Shown here: positions 2,198 through 9,864 of the stretch, piece after piece
Layout of the letters: each line of letters opens with the position of its first letter
Numbering within the stretch: the first letter of the stretch is position 1
Source of the DNA: an uncultured Thermoleophilaceae bacterium
GTDB lineage: Bacteria > Actinomycetota > Thermoleophilia > Solirubrobacterales > Thermoleophilaceae
NCBI GenBank assembly: GCA_963755215.1
Contig: CAVWIW010000014.1
Span: forward strand, 14,347-78,346
Direction: 5' to 3'
Length of the DNA: 64,000 nucleotides
Program-made: the position numbers and the translations under genes
The notes under the pieces: model-generated
Databases searched by the model: none
What the model was told of the DNA's origin: nothing
What the model saw: the letters and a program-made list of their open reading frames with translations, nothing else

Positions 2198-3769
2198 TCA
2201 GCGAACGACCACGAACCTGCGCTTCCCCAAGGCGCGTCCATACTTCCGCGCCGCCGGCCTGCCCTCGCCGGGCCACACGAACCAGGTGTAGCGGCCGGCC
2301 ACCAGACGGCGCCGCCGGCCGGCGAAGCGCCAGCTTCCGTGCAGCTGCAGCCGGTTGGTGCGCGGCCACCGGCTGAGCACCTTGCGGCCGGCGCGGAAGA
2401 GCTGGACGTTGTAGTACCGCGCTCGCTTGACCGGCTTCCAGATCAAGAGCGGCGGCTGCTTCAGCCTCCCGCCGTTCGCAGGAACGAGCAGAGGCGACGA
2501 CGTGGGCACAGCGCTGGTCTCGTCCCAGGACCGGTTGCCGGCCCTGTCGACCGCTCCCACTCGGTAGCGGTAGCGAACGCCGTTGCGCAGTTCCCGGCCG
2601 GTGAACCTGCGCCCCGCGCCGCGATACAGGACCACGTCGGCGCCGGGGTCGAGCCGCACGACCTCGAAGCTCAACCCGTCCGCCGGCAGCGACCAAGTCA
2701 GGCTGACCCGGCGGTGGCCTGGCAGCGCCTGGGCCCGCGGCGCGCCGGGGGGAGTGGCGTCGTAGGCGACGGTGTAGGACGCGGTGCCGACGTTCCCGGC
2801 GCGGTCGCGACAGCGGCCGGACACCGGCACCGCCTGGCCATCCGGCCCGCCGAAGCCGACCGTGTCGCAGCCCGCCACCCCGGACGTGCCGTCGCTGCCC
2901 TTGAACGACAGCGTCACCGGACGGTTGAACCAGCCGCCGTAGTCCGGCGGGCGGCTGGACGTGAAGCCCTGCCCCGTGGGCGGCACGCGGTCGATTCGGA
3001 TCGGAACGCTGTGCGCCGTGGTCATGAAGGGATCGCCGAGTTCCCGGATTTCGCAGTTCGCCCTGGCGGTCGCCGTGTCATTCGTGAACCGGGTCTCGAA
3101 GCAGTTCCCGCCGTTCGGCATGGCGATCAGCTGATCCCAGTCCCACCGCAGAGTGACACTCGAGCGGTACCAGCCGAGGCAGTTCGCCGGCGCCGGCGAG
3201 CACGCGTATGTCAGCGCCGGCGCCGCCCGTGCCTCGGCCGGCAACCCGGCGAGGACCGCCAGGACCACCAGCGCCGGCCCCGCGAGCCGGACCATCAGGC
3301 GGAGGCTGGCCGTGCCGGCTGCCACCAGGAGCAGCAGCCCCACGGCGGCGCGCAGGAGCGGCCCCCTGTCGGCCGTCTCACCCGTCACGGGCTTCAGCGG
3401 CAGCCGCGGCCAGGCCGTCGCGCGCTGCAGCGAAGCCGGCAGCGCGCCGGCAGCGCCGACCGGGGTCCGCTCCCGGCGTGCCTCCCGGCGTTTCGGCGCC
3501 GGCCGCGAGGCCGGGACGGGCACCGCGACTCTGCTCGGCGCGACCACGCGTACCGGACGGGCGTCGACCGGGGGCGGCGTGCGTGCAACCGGAGCGGATC
3601 GCGTCTCGGCGGCGGGCGGCTGCGCCGCGGGGGCCGGATCGGGCGCAGGCGCGGGCGCGCTCGTCGGCGAGGGTGCCGGGTCAGGCGCGGGAGGGGCGGC
3701 AACCGACAGGACCGGCGCTGCGACGAGGACGAGCGCGGTGAAGCAGAGCCAGAGCCCGAAGACGCGCAA
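2198..3769 (-). CDS. exported Pro/Ala-rich protein with Ig/fibronectin-III-like C-terminal region
   Basis: ORF 2198..3832. Preferred start is TTG at 3769 with AGGAGGG 7 nt upstream, giving a signal-like MRVFGLWLCFTALVLVAAP. A long Pro-rich spacer and a second hydrophobic segment follow, then a beta-rich Cys-containing part with an FN3-like pattern (RVSLTWSLP...YRYRVGAVDRAGN). Confidence 0.6.
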   Translation of the reverse strand: MRVFGLWLCFTALVLVAAPVLSVAAPPAPDPAPSPTSAPAPAPDPAPAAQPPAAETRSAPVARTPPPVDARPVRVVAPSRVAVPVPASRPAPKRREARRERTPVGAAGALPASLQRATAWPRLPLKPVTGETADRGPLLRAAVGLLLLVAAGTASLRLMVRLAGPALVVLAVLAGLPAEARAAPALTYACSPAPANCLGWYRSSVTLRWDWDQLIAMPNGGNCFETRFTNDTATARANCEIRELGDPFMTTAHSVPIRIDRVPPTGQGFTSSRPPDYGGWFNRPVTLSFKGSDGTSGVAGCDTVGFGGPDGQAVPVSGRCRDRAGNVGTASYTVAYDATPPGAPRAQALPGHRRVSLTWSLPADGLSFEVVRLDPGADVVLYRGAGRRFTGRELRNGVRYRYRVGAVDRAGNRSWDETSAVPTSSPLLVPANGGRLKQPPLLIWKPVKRARYYNVQLFRAGRKVLSRWPRTNRLQLHGSWRFAGRRRRLVAGRYTWFVWPGEGRPAARKYGRALGKRRFVVVR

Positions 3770-3844
3770 TAGGTCACCCTCCTGGTGTCGTAACTCGCGT
3801 CCGGGGCCACCGTAGACCCCGGCCGCCGGCAAGTCAACGGAGCG

Positions 3845-3872
3845 GCCGCCGGCCCGCGGACGGGCCGGCGGC
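3845..3872 (-). terminator. GC-rich hairpin between the repeat-protein gene and the next gene
   Basis: Perfect 12-bp stem GCCGCCGGCCCG / CGGGCCGGCGGC with a 4-nt loop, 37 nt downstream of the stop at 3909. No clear U-tract, so it could be a terminator or attenuator. Confidence 0.4.
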
Positions 3873-3908
3873 GCACCGTGTGAACTCAGCTCACCTCGTT
3901 CTTGTCCG

Positions 3909-4982
3909 TCACCTCCTCACGACGCCCTGAGCCTGGGCCAGCGCCTGCTCGAGCGCGTTGTAGTTGGCCGCGAACGAGGCGGCGCCCGACGCGTTCGACT
4001 GCGTCAGGTCGCCCCCGCCGCCGTAGCTCGCGAACCGCAGGGCCAGGCTCTTGTTCTCGGGGTAGACCTGCTTCGAGTCCGCCCACGAATCCGCGTCCTG
4101 GTAGTTCCGCGCAGCCTGGCCGGCGGCCTGGATCCCCAGCCCGCCGTGGCATCGACAGCTCGAGCCGTCCTGGCTCTGGTCGATGGCCTGCGCTGTGCGA
4201 TTGGCGTTCAGGGCCTTCGAAAGCGCCACGGACTCGTTGCTCTGAGTCACGTCGCCGTCGTCGCCCTTGCTCAGCACGCGCACGGAGAGCGCGTTGTTCT
4301 CCGGCTTGTACTGCTTCGACTCGGCCGAGGACTCGGCGCCCTGGGTCGAGTACGCGTGCTGTCCGGCTGCCTGGATCCCAACCGAGCCTTCGCAGCACTT
4401 GGGATCGGAGTCCTTGCGGTCGCCGTGCTCTTCGTGCGAGCAGCACCGCGACCCGTCCTGCGCCTGCCGGATCGCCTGCCCGAGCCGGTTCTCGTTGACC
4501 GCGTACGACTTGGCGGCCGACTCGTTGCTCTGCGAGACGTCTCCGTCGTCGCCAGGGCTGAGAACCCGCACCGAGATGTTGCGATTGGTGGGCTTGACCT
4601 GCGTGGAGTCCGCCCTGGAGTCCGCCGACTGATCGTTGACGGCCTTCTGACCGGCCTCCTGCACCGCGGCGCCACCGGAGCCGGCCTGCCGCTGCTCGAC
4701 CGCCTGCGCGGTGGAGTTGCCATTGGCGGCGCCGGACTCGGCGGTGGACGTATTGCGCTGGGTCACCGAGCCGTTGTCACCGGGGCTCAGGACCCGGACC
4801 GAGATGTTGGTGTTGCTCGGTCCGTACTGCGTCGAGGTCGCGCCCGACTGAGCGGACTGCTCGTTGGCGGCGGTCTGCTCCGAGACCTGGCCGCTCGCGG
4901 GGGCGTCGGCCATTGCCGGCCCGGCACCCACCCCAAGGGCTGCCGCGCTCACGACCAGCGCGACGAAACGGTTGCGTTTCAT
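3909..4982 (-). CDS. secreted Q/N/S/A-rich tandem-repeat protein (four imperfect repeats of 76-95 aa)
   Basis: 357-aa ORF with SD GAGGAGAA upstream of the ATG and a signal peptide (MKRNRFVALVVSAAALGVGAGPAMA|DA). Four repeats each carry N-x-S-V-R-V-L-S-P-G-D-x-G-x-V-T-Q-S-N-x-S followed by an A/S/N/Q ladder. Cys pairs (CC...CC, C-R-C) lie between repeats. Confidence 0.8.
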   Translation of the reverse strand: MKRNRFVALVVSAAALGVGAGPAMADAPASGQVSEQTAANEQSAQSGATSTQYGPSNTNISVRVLSPGDNGSVTQRNTSTAESGAANGNSTAQAVEQRQAGSGGAAVQEAGQKAVNDQSADSRADSTQVKPTNRNISVRVLSPGDDGDVSQSNESAAKSYAVNENRLGQAIRQAQDGSRCCSHEEHGDRKDSDPKCCEGSVGIQAAGQHAYSTQGAESSAESKQYKPENNALSVRVLSKGDDGDVTQSNESVALSKALNANRTAQAIDQSQDGSSCRCHGGLGIQAAGQAARNYQDADSWADSKQVYPENKSLALRFASYGGGGDLTQSNASGAASFAANYNALEQALAQAQGVVRR

Positions 4983-5055
4983 GTCGTTCTCCTCTGCGTC
5001 TTGACTTGGGCCGGGAGGTCGTTCCCCCCGGCGGGTCGCGAAGAGCCGACAGGCG

Positions 5056-6162
5056 CTAGCCAGGCCGTTCGAGCCTGCGTGAGCCGATGAAAGAGGCGAA
5101 CCTCGGGATGCGCGCCCAGACCGGGCCCAGGGCGCGTGGCGCGATCAGGCTCAGCGCGCCGAGCAGCACCACCAGGAGCACCGACGACGAGCCGCCCGGC
5201 GGGCCGGGAGCCGACGCGGCGGGCCGCGCCACGGCAGGCATCTCGAACGGGCCCGTGGACCCTTTACCCGCCTCGGGGTTCCGTCCCCGACGGGTATCCA
5301 GGCTGGGAGACGAGCGCTGCGAAGCAGTGGCCGCGAGGGGAACGGCGTACCCGGTCACCGGGCCCGCAGCTGCGGGGATACGGGCCGGTTTGAATGGCGC
5401 GCCGCCGCCCTGGACCTGGCGCGGCTCTGAGCGCCCCGCGGCGGGTGACGGCCCGCTCTGCTCGGGGGCGGTGCCCTGCGGACGGAGCCCATCCGGGGGC
5501 TGCACGGCGCCGCGTCGGGGCAGCTCGGAGGGGGTGCGCGCGGCGCCGTCCTTGCTCCGGTCACCGCGCGCCCCGGCCAGGCCTCCGCAATCCCAGTCCC
5601 AGTCCCACCTCCAGCCCGCGGCCGTGGCGGGTGGGGTCGCGGCGGGGTCGCACGTCCAGTCCCAGTCCCAGTCCCAGCAATCGGTGCCCACGAGCGGGCC
5701 GCTCGGCGCGCGGGCGCCGCCGCCGCTCCCCGTGAGCTGGACCACGTCCCCGTTGTCGCCGGGACTGAAGATTCGGATGTCCACGTTCACGTTCGCCGGT
5801 GGTCCAGCCGCCGTTGGTGGCTGCACGCTGCGTGCGTCCGGCTCGAGGGAGGGCGGGTCAGCGGTCGGCGCCACGGTCGGGGCCTCCCGGGCGGGCTCGG
5901 CCGCGGGTGCGGGCTCGGCCGGCGCGGTCGGGGGCGCGGTCGCTCCCCCACCGGCCGAGGCCTCCTCGGGACGATGCTGCTGCGACGGATCCAGCGCGGG
6001 GTCCGGCGCACCGTCCGGGGTCGCCGCCGGCGCGACGGCGCCGCCGGACCCGCCCGCGCTCGAGACCTCAGCGCTCGAAGGCTCAGGACATCCCATCGCG
6101 ATGGCCAGCGCGGCGAGAAAGCCGGCGACCATCCTGAGAGCGTTGCTTGGCGTGCTTGCCAT
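5056..6162 (-). CDS. exported (possible lipoprotein) Pro-rich protein with SPGD motif, WDWDWDW blocks and C-terminal hydrophobic anchor
   Basis: 368-aa ORF. N-terminus MASTPSNALRMVAGFLAALAIAMGC looks like a signal with a lipobox-like AMGC. It has one copy of NVNVDIRIFSPGDNGDVVQ, the blocks CWDWDWDWTC and WRWDWDWDC, and C-terminal SSVLLVVLLGALSLIAPR followed by basic residues. Confidence 0.65.
   Translation of the reverse strand: MASTPSNALRMVAGFLAALAIAMGCPEPSSAEVSSAGGSGGAVAPAATPDGAPDPALDPSQQHRPEEASAGGGATAPPTAPAEPAPAAEPAREAPTVAPTADPPSLEPDARSVQPPTAAGPPANVNVDIRIFSPGDNGDVVQLTGSGGGARAPSGPLVGTDCWDWDWDWTCDPAATPPATAAGWRWDWDWDCGGLAGARGDRSKDGAARTPSELPRRGAVQPPDGLRPQGTAPEQSGPSPAAGRSEPRQVQGGGAPFKPARIPAAAGPVTGYAVPLAATASQRSSPSLDTRRGRNPEAGKGSTGPFEMPAVARPAASAPGPPGGSSSVLLVVLLGALSLIAPRALGPVWARIPRFASFIGSRRLERPG
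5592..5677. repeat. two blocks of hexanucleotide (CCCAGT)n repeats encoding the W-D repeats
   Basis: Block 5592..5607 and block 5655..5677 are tandem CCCAGT units on the + strand (ACTGGG = W-D on the coding strand). They are in frame. Confidence 0.7.
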
Positions 6163-7250
6163 GGCAGTTCACCCGACAAGTACCGGCGAAACGCAGCCCC
6201 GGGCGAAATTCCCCGCGCCAGAGGCCGATATCGGAGATACTGCGGGGCGATATCGCGCCCTCCCGTCAAGGAAGGAGGGGGGTCTTCACGAAACAGCAGC
6301 TCAGCAGTGAGCGCGCGACGGCCACGGGCCGCCTCCTCACGGCCTACCGCGAGGAAGGCGACATCCGCGCGCGTGACCGGCTCATCCAGCTCTACATGCC
6401 GCTCGTCGAGACGCTTGCCCGCCGGCACGGCCGTCGCGGGGCGGAGCTCGAGGACCTCGTGCAGGTGGGCTCGATCGGCCTGCTCAAAGCGATCGACCGC
6501 TTCGATCCCCGCAAGGGCGAGGAGCTCACGGCCTACGCAGTCCCGACGATCTCCGGTGAGATCAAGCGCCACCTGCGCGACCGGGGGCGAGGCGACCCGG
6601 CCGCGCTGGAGCAGGCAGGGGCCTTGAGCCATCGCGGGGAGGCCGACGCCGAGCCCGAGTCCGAGGTGGACGACCGGATCCTGCTGGCCGGCGCGTTCGA
6701 GGCGCTCGACGACACGGAGCGAAAGGTCATCTACCTGCGCTACATCCGCGAGCGGAGCCGGCGCGACACCGCGAAGGAGCTCGGGATGACGGACGATCGG
6801 CTGCGCAGGAGCACGCAGGCCGCGCTCGCCAAGCTGCGCGGAGAGCTCGAGCGGGGCGCCCTCCCGGCTCCGACCCGGGAAGCGCCCGCGCCGCTGGCAC
6901 CCAGCGAGCGCCCGCCGGAGCCTGGTCCCGCCCCGGCACCCGTCGCGGAGCCCGCCAGGGACCGCAACGGCGGTTCGCACAGCGGCCGGCTGCTGGTCCG
7001 GATGCCGCAGTCCCTGCACGACGAGCTCGCCAGCGCGGCGGAGGGCGACCGCGTGAGCCTGAACCAGTTCATCACCAATGCACTGGCGTCAGCCGTCGGA
7101 TGGAACCAGCCGCGGAGCCCGGAGCCGCCGCCGAGCGAGCCGCAGCCACCCCGGCTGCTGCGGGCGGCGATCGTGACGAACATCGTCGTGCTCGCGCTGG
7201 CCGGAGTCGCGGCGCTGCTCCTGCTGGTGGCCTGGCAGCAGGGCTGGTAA
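6147..7250 (+). CDS. sigma-70 family factor (regions 2 and 4 only) fused to a ribbon-helix-helix (HicB/Arc-like) domain and a C-terminal transmembrane helix
   Basis: Region 2 motifs LEDLVQVGSIGLLKAIDRFDP and PTISGEIKRHLRD. Region 4 ALDDTERKVIYLRYIRERSRRDTAKELGMTDDRLRRSTQAALAKLR. RHH-like SGRLLVRMPQSLHDELASAAEGDRVSLNQFITNALASAVGW (about 6981-7103). TM AAIVTNIVVLALAGVAALLLLVAW (about 7164-7235). The start is uncertain: the only in-frame canonical starts are TTG 6147/6156, and the strong SD GGAAGGAGGGGGG at 6270-6282 has no canonical start after it. Confidence 0.75.
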   Translation: MACLPWQFTRQVPAKRSPGRNSPRQRPISEILRGDIAPSRQGRRGVFTKQQLSSERATATGRLLTAYREEGDIRARDRLIQLYMPLVETLARRHGRRGAELEDLVQVGSIGLLKAIDRFDPRKGEELTAYAVPTISGEIKRHLRDRGRGDPAALEQAGALSHRGEADAEPESEVDDRILLAGAFEALDDTERKVIYLRYIRERSRRDTAKELGMTDDRLRRSTQAALAKLRGELERGALPAPTREAPAPLAPSERPPEPGPAPAPVAEPARDRNGGSHSGRLLVRMPQSLHDELASAAEGDRVSLNQFITNALASAVGWNQPRSPEPPPSEPQPPRLLRAAIVTNIVVLALAGVAALLLLVAWQQGW

Positions 7251-8258
7251 GCCGCCGGCTACCCGATCGCGCGCCAGCGCTCGGGGTCCTCGCCGTCCAG
7301 CTTCTCGCGCACCGCCGCCGAGCTCGAGGTGACGCAGGTAGCACAGCGTCTCCGACAGGCCCCAGTTGAGGAGCATCGGCGTGAGCTCCTCCACGCCCAG
7401 CAGGCGGGGAACGATCTCGTAAGGGGTGCGGGGCTCGTCGGAGATGGCAGCGCGCACCCGCTCGACCCGCTCATGCACCGCCGAGCGGTTGGCCTCGATC
7501 AGGCCCGGCGCGTCGCGCACCGGGCGGCCGTGCCCCGCCAGCACCAGGTCCACGTCGAGGCCGGCGACGGTGTCGAGGCTGCGCAGGAACTCGCCCGCCG
7601 GGTCGGGCGTCCAGCCGAAGTCGTAGTAGAGGGAGACGCGCCCAATGATGTGGTCGCCCGACAGAAGCAGACGCCGCTCCGGCTGATGCAGGACCACGTG
7701 CGACGGAGCGTGCCCCGGCGTTTCGTAGACGCGCCAGGTGCCCAGGTCGGTTTCCACCTCCACCCCGTCCAACAGCTCGCGGTCGGGCGGCACCACGTCG
7801 GCGATGCCGATCCCCTGCGCCTGGCGCGCCTCTCGGTAGCGCTCCATGGTGGGGCCGGGTACGCCGCTGTGCAGCGCCACCTCGATGCGGCGCTCGAGCT
7901 GGCGGTCGGGGTCGGCCGCGGCCGTGGTCATGTGCCGGTGGTCGGGGTGCATCCACAGCTCGCAGCCGGCCCGCTCCACGATTGGCGCAGCCAGCCCGTA
8001 GTGGTCGCTGTGCGCGTGCGTGCAAACCACCAGGCGCACGTGCTCGAGCCCCATGCCGGCCTGGTCGAGCGCCAGCTCGAGCTGTGCGAGGGAGCCGGGC
8101 TCGTGCATCCCGGTGTCCACGAGCACCACGCCGCTCCCCGCCGCGATCGCGAACGCGTTCACGTGCGGCACGCCCGGCCACGGCAGCGGCAGGCGCAGCC
8201 GCCACAGGCCGGGCAGCACGCGGTCGGCCCGGGCCAGCTCGCGCTTGCGCCCGCTCAT
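7089..8258 (-). CDS. MBL-fold metallo-hydrolase
   Basis: ATG at 8258 overlaps the upstream stop (ATGA). Motifs CTHAHSDHYG and ETPGHAPSHV. The open frame runs to 7089, overlapping the sigma gene by 162 nt. A more family-like C-terminus (AAVREKLDGEDPERWRAIG, stop at 7259) lies in another frame, so a frame break near 7305 is likely. Confidence 0.75.
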   Translation of the reverse strand: MSGRKRELARADRVLPGLWRLRLPLPWPGVPHVNAFAIAAGSGVVLVDTGMHEPGSLAQLELALDQAGMGLEHVRLVVCTHAHSDHYGLAAPIVERAGCELWMHPDHRHMTTAAADPDRQLERRIEVALHSGVPGPTMERYREARQAQGIGIADVVPPDRELLDGVEVETDLGTWRVYETPGHAPSHVVLHQPERRLLLSGDHIIGRVSLYYDFGWTPDPAGEFLRSLDTVAGLDVDLVLAGHGRPVRDAPGLIEANRSAVHERVERVRAAISDEPRTPYEIVPRLLGVEELTPMLLNWGLSETLCYLRHLELGGGAREAGRRGPRALARDRVAGGLPALLPGHQQEQRRDSGQREHDDVRHDRRPQQPGWLRLARRRLRAPRLVPSDG

Positions 8259-9864
8259 GGGTCGATCAGCACACCGGGGTTGAGCATGCCGGCGGGGTCC
8301 AGCTCGCGCTTGGCCGCCCGCAGGGCCGATGCGAACACGTCCGGGCGCTGGCGGTCGTACCAGGGGCGGTGATCGCGGCCCACCGCGTGGTGGTGGGTGA
8401 TCGTGCCGCCGGCTGCCACGATCGCCTCCGAGGCGGCCTCCTTGACCTCCTGCCACTGCTCCAGCTCGAGCCCGCGGCGTGCCGGAGCGAGGACGGTGAA
8501 GTAGGGCGCGGCGCCGTCGGGGTAGGCGTGGGTGAGGCGGCAGGTCACGCGCCCTTCGCCGAGCGCCTCACGCGCGGCGCCGCCGACGGACGCCACGAAC
8601 TCATCGAACGCGTCCCAGGTGATCGCCGTCTCGAACGTCTCGGCCAGGACACCGGCGGCCACCATCGTGTCGCGCAGGTAGGGCGCGCGCAGGAACGCGT
8701 CTCGCCACGAGCCCTCCGCGACGCCGCGCTCGCCCTCCCCCGCCTCGGGCCCGCGCAGGCGAGGCTCTCCGCTGGGGCTGCCCCCGTGATCGCCGCAGAG
8801 CTCCAGCGCGCGCGCCAGCCAGGCGTCGAGGGGATGGTCCGCCGACTCGAAGCCGAGGACCAACACTGCGCGCCCGGCGGCCGACGCGCCGGTGAGCTCG
8901 GCCTCGGCCGGGTCCAGCAGGCGGCAGTTGGAGGGCGAGAGCCCCGACTGCGCCAGGTCGCGCACGGCGCCCGCTCCAGCCTCGAAGCGTCTCGAACTCC
9001 AGGTCGGCGGCAGCCCTGAAGGGCGGCCGTGGCCGCACCCTCACCCAGGCCTCTGTGATCACCCCGAGGATCCCCTCCGAGCCGATCAGCATCCGGTCCG
9101 GACTGGGCCCCGCGCCCGACGCGGGCAGCCGGCGGCTCTGCCACTCGCCGGCCGGCGTGATCGCCCGGACCGACTGCACCAGGTCGTCGATGTGCGTCGG
9201 CCCGGTGGCGAAGTGACCGCCCGCGCGCGTGGCGATCCACCCGCCTAGCGTCGAGTACTCGAACGACTGGGGGAAGTGGCGCAGCGTCAGGCCGTGGGAT
9301 CTCAGCTGCTCCTCCAGCTCGGGGCCGGTTGCGCCCGCCTGGATCAGCGCCGTCTGGGAGGTGGCGTCGACCTCCAGGACCCGGTCCAGGGCGCGTAGGT
9401 CGAGCGTGACCACAGGCCGGTCGCCCAGGTCGCGCGCCTCGACCCCGCCGCACACGCTCGTGCCGCCGCCGAACGGAACCACGGCCGCGCCGGCTCCCTC
9501 GCACCAGTCCAGCACCCGCTCCACGTCGGCCTCGGCCTGCGGCCGCGCCACCACGTCGGGCGGCTCGGGGAAGTCGCCGCGGAAGCCGCGCACGACGTCG
9601 CGGTAGGCCTTGCCCAGCGCGTGCGACGCGCGCTCGTGGGCATCCGACAAGCAGATGGCTGCCAGTGCCGCCGGAGGCGTCTACCCGCGGCGCCCGCAGC
9701 GTCACGTCGTCCAAGGGCACCGGGCGCTCCACCTCCGCCGCGCCGAACCCCAGGTGCTCGCGGAGGCCGCGCGCGGCCGCCTCGACCTCCTCGTGGGGCG
9801 GCTGCTGGTCCTCGTATCCCCAGCCCCAGTGCTTGAGCCTGCGCGTGCCCTCGATCACACCCAT
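8255..9864 (-). pseudogene. FAD-linked oxidase (alkyl-DHAP-synthase/GlcD-like), split over three frames
   Basis: The N-terminus (LKHWGWGYED), the FAD-binding part (VVPFGGGTSVCGG, EGILGVITEAW) and the C-terminus (GGTITHHHAVGRDH...MLNPGVLIDP) lie in three different frames. The junctions are near 9678 and 8988. Confidence 0.8.

Follow-up and report, generated by a model that had tools for sequence, protein, structure and literature searches.

The question raised by gene D, in a stretch of 64,000 nucleotides from an uncultured Thermoleophilaceae bacterium (contig CAVWIW010000014.1, positions 14,347 to 78,346; here the window), is what might be built from a secreted protein of four long glutamine- and asparagine-rich repeats. 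A sequence-only reading of the window had compared these repeats with those of curlin while calling them clearly different. Gene D belongs to a five-gene module, sigma / E / D / S / IG, which also encodes a divergently transcribed sigma factor, a membrane-anchored paralogue of D (E), a proline-rich membrane protein (S) and a protein of four immunoglobulin/fibronectin type III (Ig/FN3)-like domains (IG). The answer preferred here, on a tentative footing, is that D is quite plausibly the major subunit of an extracellular cross-beta fibre at the cell surface, one that resembles curli without sharing its ancestry. D and its parts are located as follows.

3909..4982, minus strand: gene D, a 357-residue secreted four-repeat protein (open reading frame (ORF) and translation, ATG start)
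4989..4993, minus strand: Shine-Dalgarno sequence AGGAG, with the ATG 6 nucleotides further on (sequence)
4908..4982, minus strand: Sec-type signal peptide, residues 1-25, with predicted cleavage between AMA and DA (read from sequence)
4683..4898, minus strand: repeat 1 (R1, residues 29-100), consisting of strand A, tip NISVRVLSPGDNGS and strand B (AlphaFold strands E30-53 and E72-100)
4455..4670, minus strand: repeat 2 (R2, residues 105-176; AlphaFold strands E106-129 and E148-176)
4383..4454, minus strand: R2/R3 linker (residues 177-200), a loop, charged and rich in His, that is closed off by CC...CC (sequence)
4167..4382, minus strand: repeat 3 (R3, residues 201-272; AlphaFold strands E201-225 and E245-271)
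4140..4166, minus strand: R3/R4 linker (residues 273-281), with a CxC motif (C276, C278; CRC) (sequence)
3924..4139, minus strand: repeat 4 (R4, residues 282-353), with variant tip LALRFASYGGGGDL, the variant being kept in D's clade

The G+C content at third codon positions, measured on a near-identical copy of D in locus L001, is 0.90, as expected of a genuine coding gene in a window of 71% G+C. The signal peptide (MKRNRFVALVVSAAALGVGAGPAMA, followed by DA) includes an AGPAMA segment that is nearly invariant in an alignment of 76 homologues (A1); the ORF, its translation and this conservation bear out the secreted 357-residue product of the sequence-only reading, which had also correctly given the gene a Shine-Dalgarno sequence of its own. 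The four units align without gaps over 72 residues, with pairwise identities of 42-60% and a mean of 37.5 identical positions out of 72, compared with 6.0 +/- 1.0 (8%) and a maximum of 9 in 2000 shuffles of mature D. The four imperfect Q/N/S/A repeats that had been described are thus genuine, and the consensus given for them was otherwise correct, but the repeat starts (residues 50, 126, 221 and 301) had been placed about 20 residues inside each true unit because the first strand was missed. All six cysteines of D are confined to the two longer linkers, where Cys pairs had indeed been noted: C180, C181, C196 and C197 between repeats 2 and 3 (CCSHEEHGDRKDSDPKCC), and C276 and C278, which are nearly invariant in alignment A1, between repeats 3 and 4. 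Also nearly invariant in A1 are S314, R316, S319, G321, G323 and G324 of the repeat 4 tip.

D has no match in Pfam or NCBIfam, and a search of PDB sequences with the D family profile returned nothing relevant. A word-indexed search (8000 candidates scored) yielded 482 homologues at E ≤ 1e-3, almost all of them named 'hypothetical protein' and a few carrying evidently wrong automatic names. An exhaustive profile search of 1.84 billion cluster representatives yielded 1203 (at 50% identity) at E ≤ 1e-3, 759 at E ≤ 1e-10 and 307 at E ≤ 1e-30, the longest one listed having 1161 residues and the only cluster name returned being 'hypothetical protein [Gaiella sp.]'. A scan of one genome per species matched 146 loci, of which 80 were kept and form the basis of the locus counts out of 80 given below. 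All 80 come from metagenome-assembled genomes and are labelled as Thermoleophilaceae, Gaiellaceae, Solirubrobacteraceae or Thermoleophilia, or with generic actinobacterial names. In CAWFBA010000012.1 (uncultured Thermoleophilaceae bacterium) the D protein is 100% identical to that of the window, and its neighbours are 90-99% identical. A literature search that included motif strings found no description of the D family, and nothing relevant on amyloid in Thermoleophilia or on functional amyloid in actinobacteria. Since the family is large and almost all of it is labelled 'hypothetical', its repeat profile and the five-gene signature could be used to annotate members and their neighbours.

A hidden Markov model (HMM) built from the four D units recovered 1253 repeats in 231 proteins. 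Enlarging the set with cluster representatives raised this to 2230 repeats in 378 proteins; the analysis used the 1909 that were full-length, 1822 of them unique (effective number of sequences, Neff, about 1033). Positions are numbered here by the 72-column repeat model. Conserved and variable positions alternate strictly in the repeat profile, in 971 unique repeats as in the 1822 of the enlarged set. The conserved positions of strand A are Q4, A6, Q8, A10, N/S12, Q14, A16, A/S18, A/S20, S/A/T22 and Q24; those of the tip are P27, N29, N31, S/P33, V34, R35, V36, L37, S38, P39, G40, D41, D42 and G43; and those of strand B are V45, Q47, N49, S51, A53, A55, A57, N59, N61, T/L63, Q65, A67, Q69 and Q71. 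Nearly 100% invariance is found at Q4, Q8, Q14, Q24, Q47, N49, N59, Q65 and Q69. Each strand has one face of near-invariant Q, N, A, S and T and another that is variable and hydrophilic (D, E, K, T, S, G). Insertions are restricted to the tip and the linkers; strand A has almost no insertions or deletions, and strand B has none apart from C-terminal trimming. Between 1 and 15 repeats are detected per protein, with 4 and 7 as the modes.

Several automatic labels and weak profile matches of family members were rejected. For Inhibitor I78 (PF11720), D has no match at E ≤ 1 and 36 of the 76 members have weak matches (best 3.5e-5); in long homologues the above-cutoff score adds up several incomplete alignments with the tip (mostly at positions 12-38 of the 65-position profile), no single one of which passes, and it is such short local tip matches (for example, at D residues 57-75) that account for the precomputed PF11720 label on some long homologues. 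Matches to the GFP Pfam family in 59 of the 76 members are below cutoff and are likewise short local matches to the tip that do not indicate homology. The Joint Genome Institute (JGI) name of homologue P0024, trimeric autotransporter adhesin, was also set aside: no YadA-type domain (head, stalk or anchor) is found among the 25 Pfam families that matched most widely across the 76 members, a scan that did not include P0024 itself.

The packing of the two strands was approached by mean-field direct-coupling analysis (DCA) of the 1822 unique repeats. The top five pairs (22-51, 12-61, 18-55, 20-53 and 6-67; 18.5 to 6.2 standard deviations) without exception obey i+j = 73 and involve conserved-face positions, and the mean score on the i+j = 73 antidiagonal is 3.55, compared with 0.44 or less on every other antidiagonal. 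By this coevolution, strands A and B of one repeat pair antiparallel, in fixed register, and touch through their conserved faces. Residue volumes at coupled positions compensate each other: at 6/67 the pairs are I-A, A-I, A-V and V-A, never I-I, with large-large combinations essentially absent; at 22/51 they are S-S, T-A and A-V; and at 18/55 they are A-A or S-S. On the exposed faces no antidiagonal signal was detected at Neff of about 1033. The volume compensation and the silence of the exposed faces fit opposed side chains in a two-layer core (a beta-arch) better than lateral neighbours in a single sheet.

The same register could be produced in another way, if each repeat were a long hydrogen-bonded beta-hairpin in an antiparallel meander, two such sheets being paired through the conserved face into a two-dimensional lattice of S-layer or sheath type or into an antiparallel cross-beta ribbon. 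Pairing at i+j = 73 joins like with like (Q4/Q69, Q8/Q65, N12/N61, Q14/N59, A16/A57, A18/A55, A20/A53, S22/S51) and would give continuous Q/N and Ala stripes; DSSP output is compatible with either topology; and like-charge pairs on the exposed faces are slightly depleted at i+j = 73 (ratio 0.88 for A(n)-B(n) and 0.86 for B(n)-A(n+1)), a small effect without a significance test. Lateral pairing in one sheet sits poorly, however, with the lack of exposed-face couplings and with the strict exclusion of large-large pairs, so that an arrangement of this kind is judged unlikely. Two further candidates were ruled out: a closed eight-strand beta-barrel, because the conserved face is the same in proteins with anything from 1 to 15 repeats, and an ice- or ligand-binding role for an exposed conserved face, because the opposite face is variable and charged and unable to form a core.

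In the fibre model preferred here, D would be exported by Sec, and each 72-residue repeat would fold as a single rung, in which strand A, of 21 residues, and strand B, of 27, lie antiparallel and face to face through their near-invariant Q/N/A/S/T residues, with the hydrophobic SVRVLSPGDDG tip closing the rung at one side and a Gly/Cys linker at the other. Rungs stacked in register would make a flat two-sheet beta-solenoid with a polar core of Gln/Asn ladders and a variable hydrophilic outside, each rung being calculated as about 8 nm wide and 0.48 nm thick, and D subunits would then add end to end. Paired linker cysteines would staple loops or rungs together by disulfides.

The linkers between repeats are 3-96 residues long across the family. 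Cysteines per unique linker number 0 (315 linkers), 2 (349), 4 (61) or 6 (3) and are never odd, and the commonest motifs are CxC (280 unique linkers) and CC (49). Four-Cys linkers bracket low-complexity loops rich in His, Asp, Glu, Lys and Tyr. These long Cys-bracketed linkers may be metal-binding loops closed by disulfides. It was also observed that the long linkers, for example those of P0015 and P0003 and the one at 4383..4454 in D, carry inserts such as KDDYGHEKDDYGREKDDYGH and EHGSDEHGSDEHGHD, always flanked by CC...CxC or CC...CC.

A very improbable explanation, on present evidence, is that D has no structural role and instead, as a hydrophilic protein secreted under stress, helps to retain water or to withstand desiccation, or else binds metal through its Cys/His/Asp-rich linkers, its induction being due to a stress sigma factor. 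Its composition (16% Q+N, 39% A+S+G), the CC...CxC pairs around His/Asp/Glu/Lys/Tyr-rich loops, the SigB/F/G stress or differentiation type of the adjacent sigma factor, and a SpoIIAA-like gene near the module in one locus (L081) would all suit such a role. Metal or thiol chemistry is nevertheless not the core function of the family, as about 43% of unique linkers are free of Cys, and some 30 near-invariant positions per repeat, indel-free strands and strong coevolution between strands point to a precise fold and not to a disordered hydrophilin, and the presence of a membrane-anchored paralogue and an Ig/FN3 rod suggests a structure at the cell surface.

An AlphaFold2 model of D computed with 76 homologues has eight strands of 24-29 residues that fall exactly on A and B. 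Its Foldseek neighbours in PDB are headed by the FapC fibril 9u4u (E = 8.7e-3, probability 0.06, template modelling (TM) score 0.07-0.11), with CsgA fibrils at rank 2 and with SufBD, ice-binding proteins, pectate lyases and tailspikes further down among the matches listed, none of them significant. We take all 50 neighbours listed for parallel beta-helices or solenoids; antiparallel sheets are absent from the list, which disfavours the antiparallel meander as well. Since the 3Di alphabet separates parallel from antiparallel neighbours, the D model is read as a stack of rungs.

Several observations weigh against the fibre model. The AlphaFold model is of low confidence (predicted local distance difference test, pLDDT, 58.8; predicted TM score, pTM, 0.48), and no Foldseek neighbour is significant. 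The parallel solenoid topology of the model is read from the fold class of the hit list alone. DCA of two consecutive repeats is dominated by i-i' couplings, which are inseparable from shared ancestry and lineage effects, and also contains A(n)-B(n+1) couplings, which cannot be contacts in a single sheet. To our knowledge, straight cross-beta strands of 21-27 residues in a two-arc rung have no solved precedent. In D's clade the paralogue E has the tip only, without a full rung, and the module contains no chaperone or secretion partners of the curli or Fap kind.

In a somewhat unlikely alternative, D is a stand-alone, non-polymerising beta-solenoid that serves as an adhesin, as part of a coat or as a rod for ligand binding; E, S and the Ig/FN3 rod would keep it at the surface, and its length would depend on how many repeats it has. 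The repeat anatomy would be the same as in the fibre; adhesins, enzymes and ice-binding proteins with monomeric beta-helices make up many of the Foldseek neighbours listed; repeat 1 has a conserved variant of the first strand and repeat 4 one of the tip, and these could cap the solenoid instead of forming interfaces; and the longest members, of up to 15 rungs, could be stable without polymerising. Four rungs with an almost purely Q/N/A/S core, however, would be unlikely to be stable as a monomer, D having only 3 F, 1 W and 8 Y, with its 24 V, 15 L and 6 I mainly in the signal peptide and the tips, and low AlphaFold confidence is itself compatible with an unstable monomer. A co-encoded paralogue that has only the stacking tip would also be easier to explain as a template. 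The points counted in favour of the fibre model are the strict alternation, the indel-free strands, the DCA pairs, the volume compensation, the AlphaFold strands and the solenoid neighbours, together with the conserved module, the tip and transmembrane anchor of E, the variable number of repeats, the even Cys counts and the hairpin that follows D. Sequence analysis establishes the anatomy of the repeat, the pairing of A and B through their conserved faces, the family and the conserved module; in-register stacking, polymerisation, the roles of E, S and IG, the disulfides and the regulation proposed below are inferred.

The five-gene module sigma / E / D / S / IG is conserved, as judged from gene content across the 80 loci. 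Sigma-factor and IG genes accompany D in 75-77 of them, a sigma factor standing beside the repeat gene in 77 and an IG-type gene being found by tblastn in 75; gene calls place an E-type gene upstream of D in 57 and some gene in the S position in 41; and the full order sigma / E / D / S / IG was found in two loci with independent gene calls. Flanking housekeeping genes (metF, a metallo-beta-lactamase (MBL)-fold hydrolase and 2-oxoglutarate dehydrogenase) are common to the three closest genomes only. The features of gene E are as follows.

5056..6162, minus strand: gene E, a 368-residue membrane-anchored paralogue of D (hhalign, and features kept across loci)
5737..5799, minus strand: repeat tip of E, PANVNVDIRIFSPGDNGDVVQ (hhalign)
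5650..5679 and 5587..5613, minus strand: Cys-bounded Trp segments CWDWDWDWTC and WRWDWDWDC of E (sequence)
5137..5190, minus strand: C-terminal transmembrane helix of E (sequence)
5059..5076, minus strand: basic tail of E, ending in RLERPG (sequence)

E has no match in Pfam or NCBIfam either. It consists of a signal peptide, a Pro/Ala-rich spacer, one repeat tip, two Trp segments, a C-terminal transmembrane helix and a basic tail. Its relationship to D was detected by hhalign of the D profile over the tip (P = 86%, E = 5e-6). One tip is present in D's clade and one to three tip motifs in other lineages; the Trp segments read WxWxWxW in most loci; and the C-terminal transmembrane anchor is present in nearly all loci where E was called. 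The C-terminal pattern, mostly [DE][RH]PG, was found in 55 of 1090 ORFs, of which 54 are directly upstream of D-type repeat genes (53 upstream of the main D). This almost invariant ending, at the very C-terminus, matches no NCBIfam sorting-signal model and might serve for docking in the cytoplasm or as a signal for processing. By analogy, E is proposed to be the anchor and nucleator of the D polymer: held in the membrane by its C-terminal helix, it would display its repeat tip or tips, on which the polymer would be nucleated.

The intergenic regions on either side of D contain three further elements.

4983..5055, minus strand: E-D intergenic spacer (73 nucleotides), with a GC-rich stem-loop just upstream of the Shine-Dalgarno sequence (folding energy)
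3837..3879, minus strand: GC-rich hairpin just 3' of the D stop codon, without a U-run (folding energy and conservation)
3809..3837, minus strand: candidate promoter for the downstream genes, TTGACT, 17 nucleotides, TACGGT (read from sequence)

The E-D spacer has a folding energy of -32.9 kcal/mol (z = -2.0), and its inverted repeat, judged by eye, persists across Thermoleophilaceae loci despite differing sequence; the stem-loop could terminate E or stabilise the D transcript from its 5' side. No recognisable promoter of D was seen. The 76-nucleotide spacer 3' of D has a folding energy of -45.8 kcal/mol (z = -4.2), and none of 200 shuffles was as stable. The GC hairpin that had been reported at 3845..3872 proves to be the core of the one at 3837..3879, and a comparable hairpin (z < -2; stem of roughly 12-21 base pairs) is present in 61 of 74 related loci. 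It is missing from the list of the terminator scan because it has no T-run, and probably acts as a terminator or attenuator, setting D apart from the genes that follow. Directly after the hairpin comes GTTGAC, which is kept in many related loci; the TTGACT/TACGGT element to which it belongs resembles an actinobacterial housekeeping promoter and is possibly one. A strict sigma-70 scan and a canonical terminator scan found nothing around D, and the former did not pick up this element either.

The remaining genes of the module are located as follows.

2198..3832, minus strand: fused S-IG ORF (gene calls, tblastn, models)
6147..7250, plus strand: divergent sigma factor of SigB/SigF/SigG type (Pfam, NCBIfam)
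6984..7100, plus strand: HicB-like ribbon-helix-helix segment fused to the sigma factor (Pfam)
7164..7235, plus strand: C-terminal transmembrane helix of the sigma factor (sequence)

S and IG form one ORF in the window and in the two closest metagenome-assembled genomes, and are separate genes in most relatives. S, of about 200 residues, has a signal or transmembrane segment, a Pro-rich stretch of PDPAP type and a C-terminal transmembrane helix. Its listed TTG start at 3832 falls within the promoter-like element, and the true start is probably the TTG at 3769, which is preceded by AGGAGG. IG begins at about nucleotide 3295 and comprises about 365 residues with a signal peptide of its own; it was modelled as four tandem Ig/FN3-like domains (pLDDT 92.4), for which the best Foldseek matches are CD45 d1-d4 (8e-11) and the GhpA stalk. 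In the fibre model, the membrane protein S and the IG rod would be accessory spacers.

The sigma factor matches the Pfam families Sigma70_r2 (2.7e-20), Sigma70_r4 (7.5e-8) and HicB (3.2e-9) and the NCBIfam model TIGR02980 (3.5e-39; 134.8 bits, under the curated cutoff of 234), and its true start probably lies downstream of 6147. In Gaiellaceae-type loci two neighbouring genes encode the sigma factor and the HicB-like protein separately. The C-terminal transmembrane helix would tether the sigma factor to the membrane, and the divergent SigB/F-type sigma factor is the proposed switch that would turn the module on. Beyond it, at 8255..9864 on the minus strand, lies a gene apparently split over two frames: the first of its two overlapping ORFs, 8601..9650 and 8255..8965, terminates in an Arg/Pro-rich sequence that looks to be out of frame. 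By the look of its translation it is taken as a flavin adenine dinucleotide (FAD)-linked oxidase gene, and it is either a frameshifted pseudogene or the product of an indel error in assembly.

Thermoleophilia, a class of mostly uncultured actinobacteria, rank among the most abundant and least studied soil bacteria. If D forms fibres as proposed, the design space of cross-beta structures would be wider than known systems suggest, with rungs three times the length of those in curli and a core without hydrophobic residues. The disulfide-closed loops, which tolerate insertions of tens of residues, would make D attractive for use as a scaffold in engineered materials. Two other features of the module lend themselves to testing: a sigma factor that may be tethered to the membrane and carries a ribbon-helix-helix segment, and an anchor with an almost invariant, putatively cytoplasmic C-terminus.

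Comparison with curli, whose major subunit CsgA and nucleator CsgB occur in Escherichia coli and many other Gram-negative bacteria, reveals an analogy of design in the absence of sequence relationship. Like curli subunits, D is secreted and built of imperfect tandem repeats in which alternate residues are conserved S, Q, N and A, the number of repeats varies between species, and strand-turn-strand rungs with a polar Q/N ladder core are predicted. As in curli, a cell-associated minor paralogue is encoded directly upstream of the major one, a correspondence that for E is by analogy only, and a dedicated transcription factor is encoded divergently. The curli rung is of about 22 residues with strands of about 8, whereas the D rung is of 72 residues with strands of 21 and 27. 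The curlin motif S-X5-Q-X-G-X-G-N-X-A-X3-Q, in a unit of about 19-23 residues, is not found in D: there is no conserved GxGN turn within the strands, conserved Gly occurring only in the tip (G40, G43) and the linkers, and in its place D has the hydrophobic SVRVLSPGDDG tip and Cys-containing linkers. Neither D nor any of the 76 family members matches Curlin_rpt (PF07012) at E ≤ 1, and hhalign of the family profile with Escherichia coli CsgA gave P = 0.15% and E = 0.4; the sequence-only reading was right to set the repeats apart from curlin, to which no homology is seen. The host of D is an actinobacterium, its anchor E is an integral membrane protein, and the module has no CsgG/E/F/C homologues and no outer-membrane secretion genes; Pfam families of CsgG, CsgE and CsgF were also absent among the called genes of two related loci and the four window proteins scanned. 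Even so, the curli analogy holds up better than could be known from the letters of the window, in view of the unannotated family, the polar-face packing shown by coevolution, the solenoid-type though non-significant neighbours and the upstream paralogue in a CsgB-like position.

The Fap system of Pseudomonas, with its functional amyloid proteins FapC and FapB, offers a second comparison. Fap subunits have imperfect repeats rich in Q, N, A, S and G, linkers of variable length and a beta-solenoid stack of repeats (PMC12392863, PMC12822426), and their repeats almost invariably number three (PMC12822426). Imperfect repeats, Q/N ladders and an adjacent nucleator-like paralogue are design elements that D shares with CsgA and FapC (PMC12822426). 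Imperfect repeats and a putative nucleator paralogue thus link D to Fap, and FapC is its top Foldseek neighbour, but the match to 9u4u is not significant, no PDB sequence is matched, and the module has no Fap partners. Unlike Fap subunits, members of the D family have 1-15 repeats, and their module contains neither an outer-membrane channel of FapF type nor a FapD protease gene.

Streptomyces has chaplins and rodlins, actinobacterial surface proteins that are secreted and form amyloid, with paired cysteines and control by developmental sigma factors; the long chaplins are anchored to the cell and the short ones polymerise. Chaplin domains are of about 40 residues and hydrophobic, whereas D units are of 72 residues and polar, and chaplins are anchored by sortase through LPXTG, whereas E would be anchored by a C-terminal transmembrane helix with an ...ERPG tail. 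The Chaplin family (PF03777) is absent from the Pfam results for D and from the 25 most widely matched of 40 families in the 76 members. Antifreeze and ice-binding solenoids of insects and bacteria, with disulfide-stapled rungs or regular polar faces, share flat beta-sheets, tandem repeats and small polar ladders with D, and some members of the D family have regularly spaced Cys; in ice-binding proteins, however, the polar face is exposed and there is a separate core, whereas in D the conserved polar face is the sole candidate for a core and is placed by coevolution between A and B. It is plausible, though doubtful in its full extent, that Thermoleophilia have a functional-amyloid system of their own, unrelated to curli, Fap, TasA or chaplins and the first to be attributed to this class, its subunit being a flattened beta-solenoid with giant 72-residue rungs, a purely polar core and disulfide staples, nucleated by the Trp-ladder/ERPG paralogue E and controlled by a membrane-tethered sigma factor.

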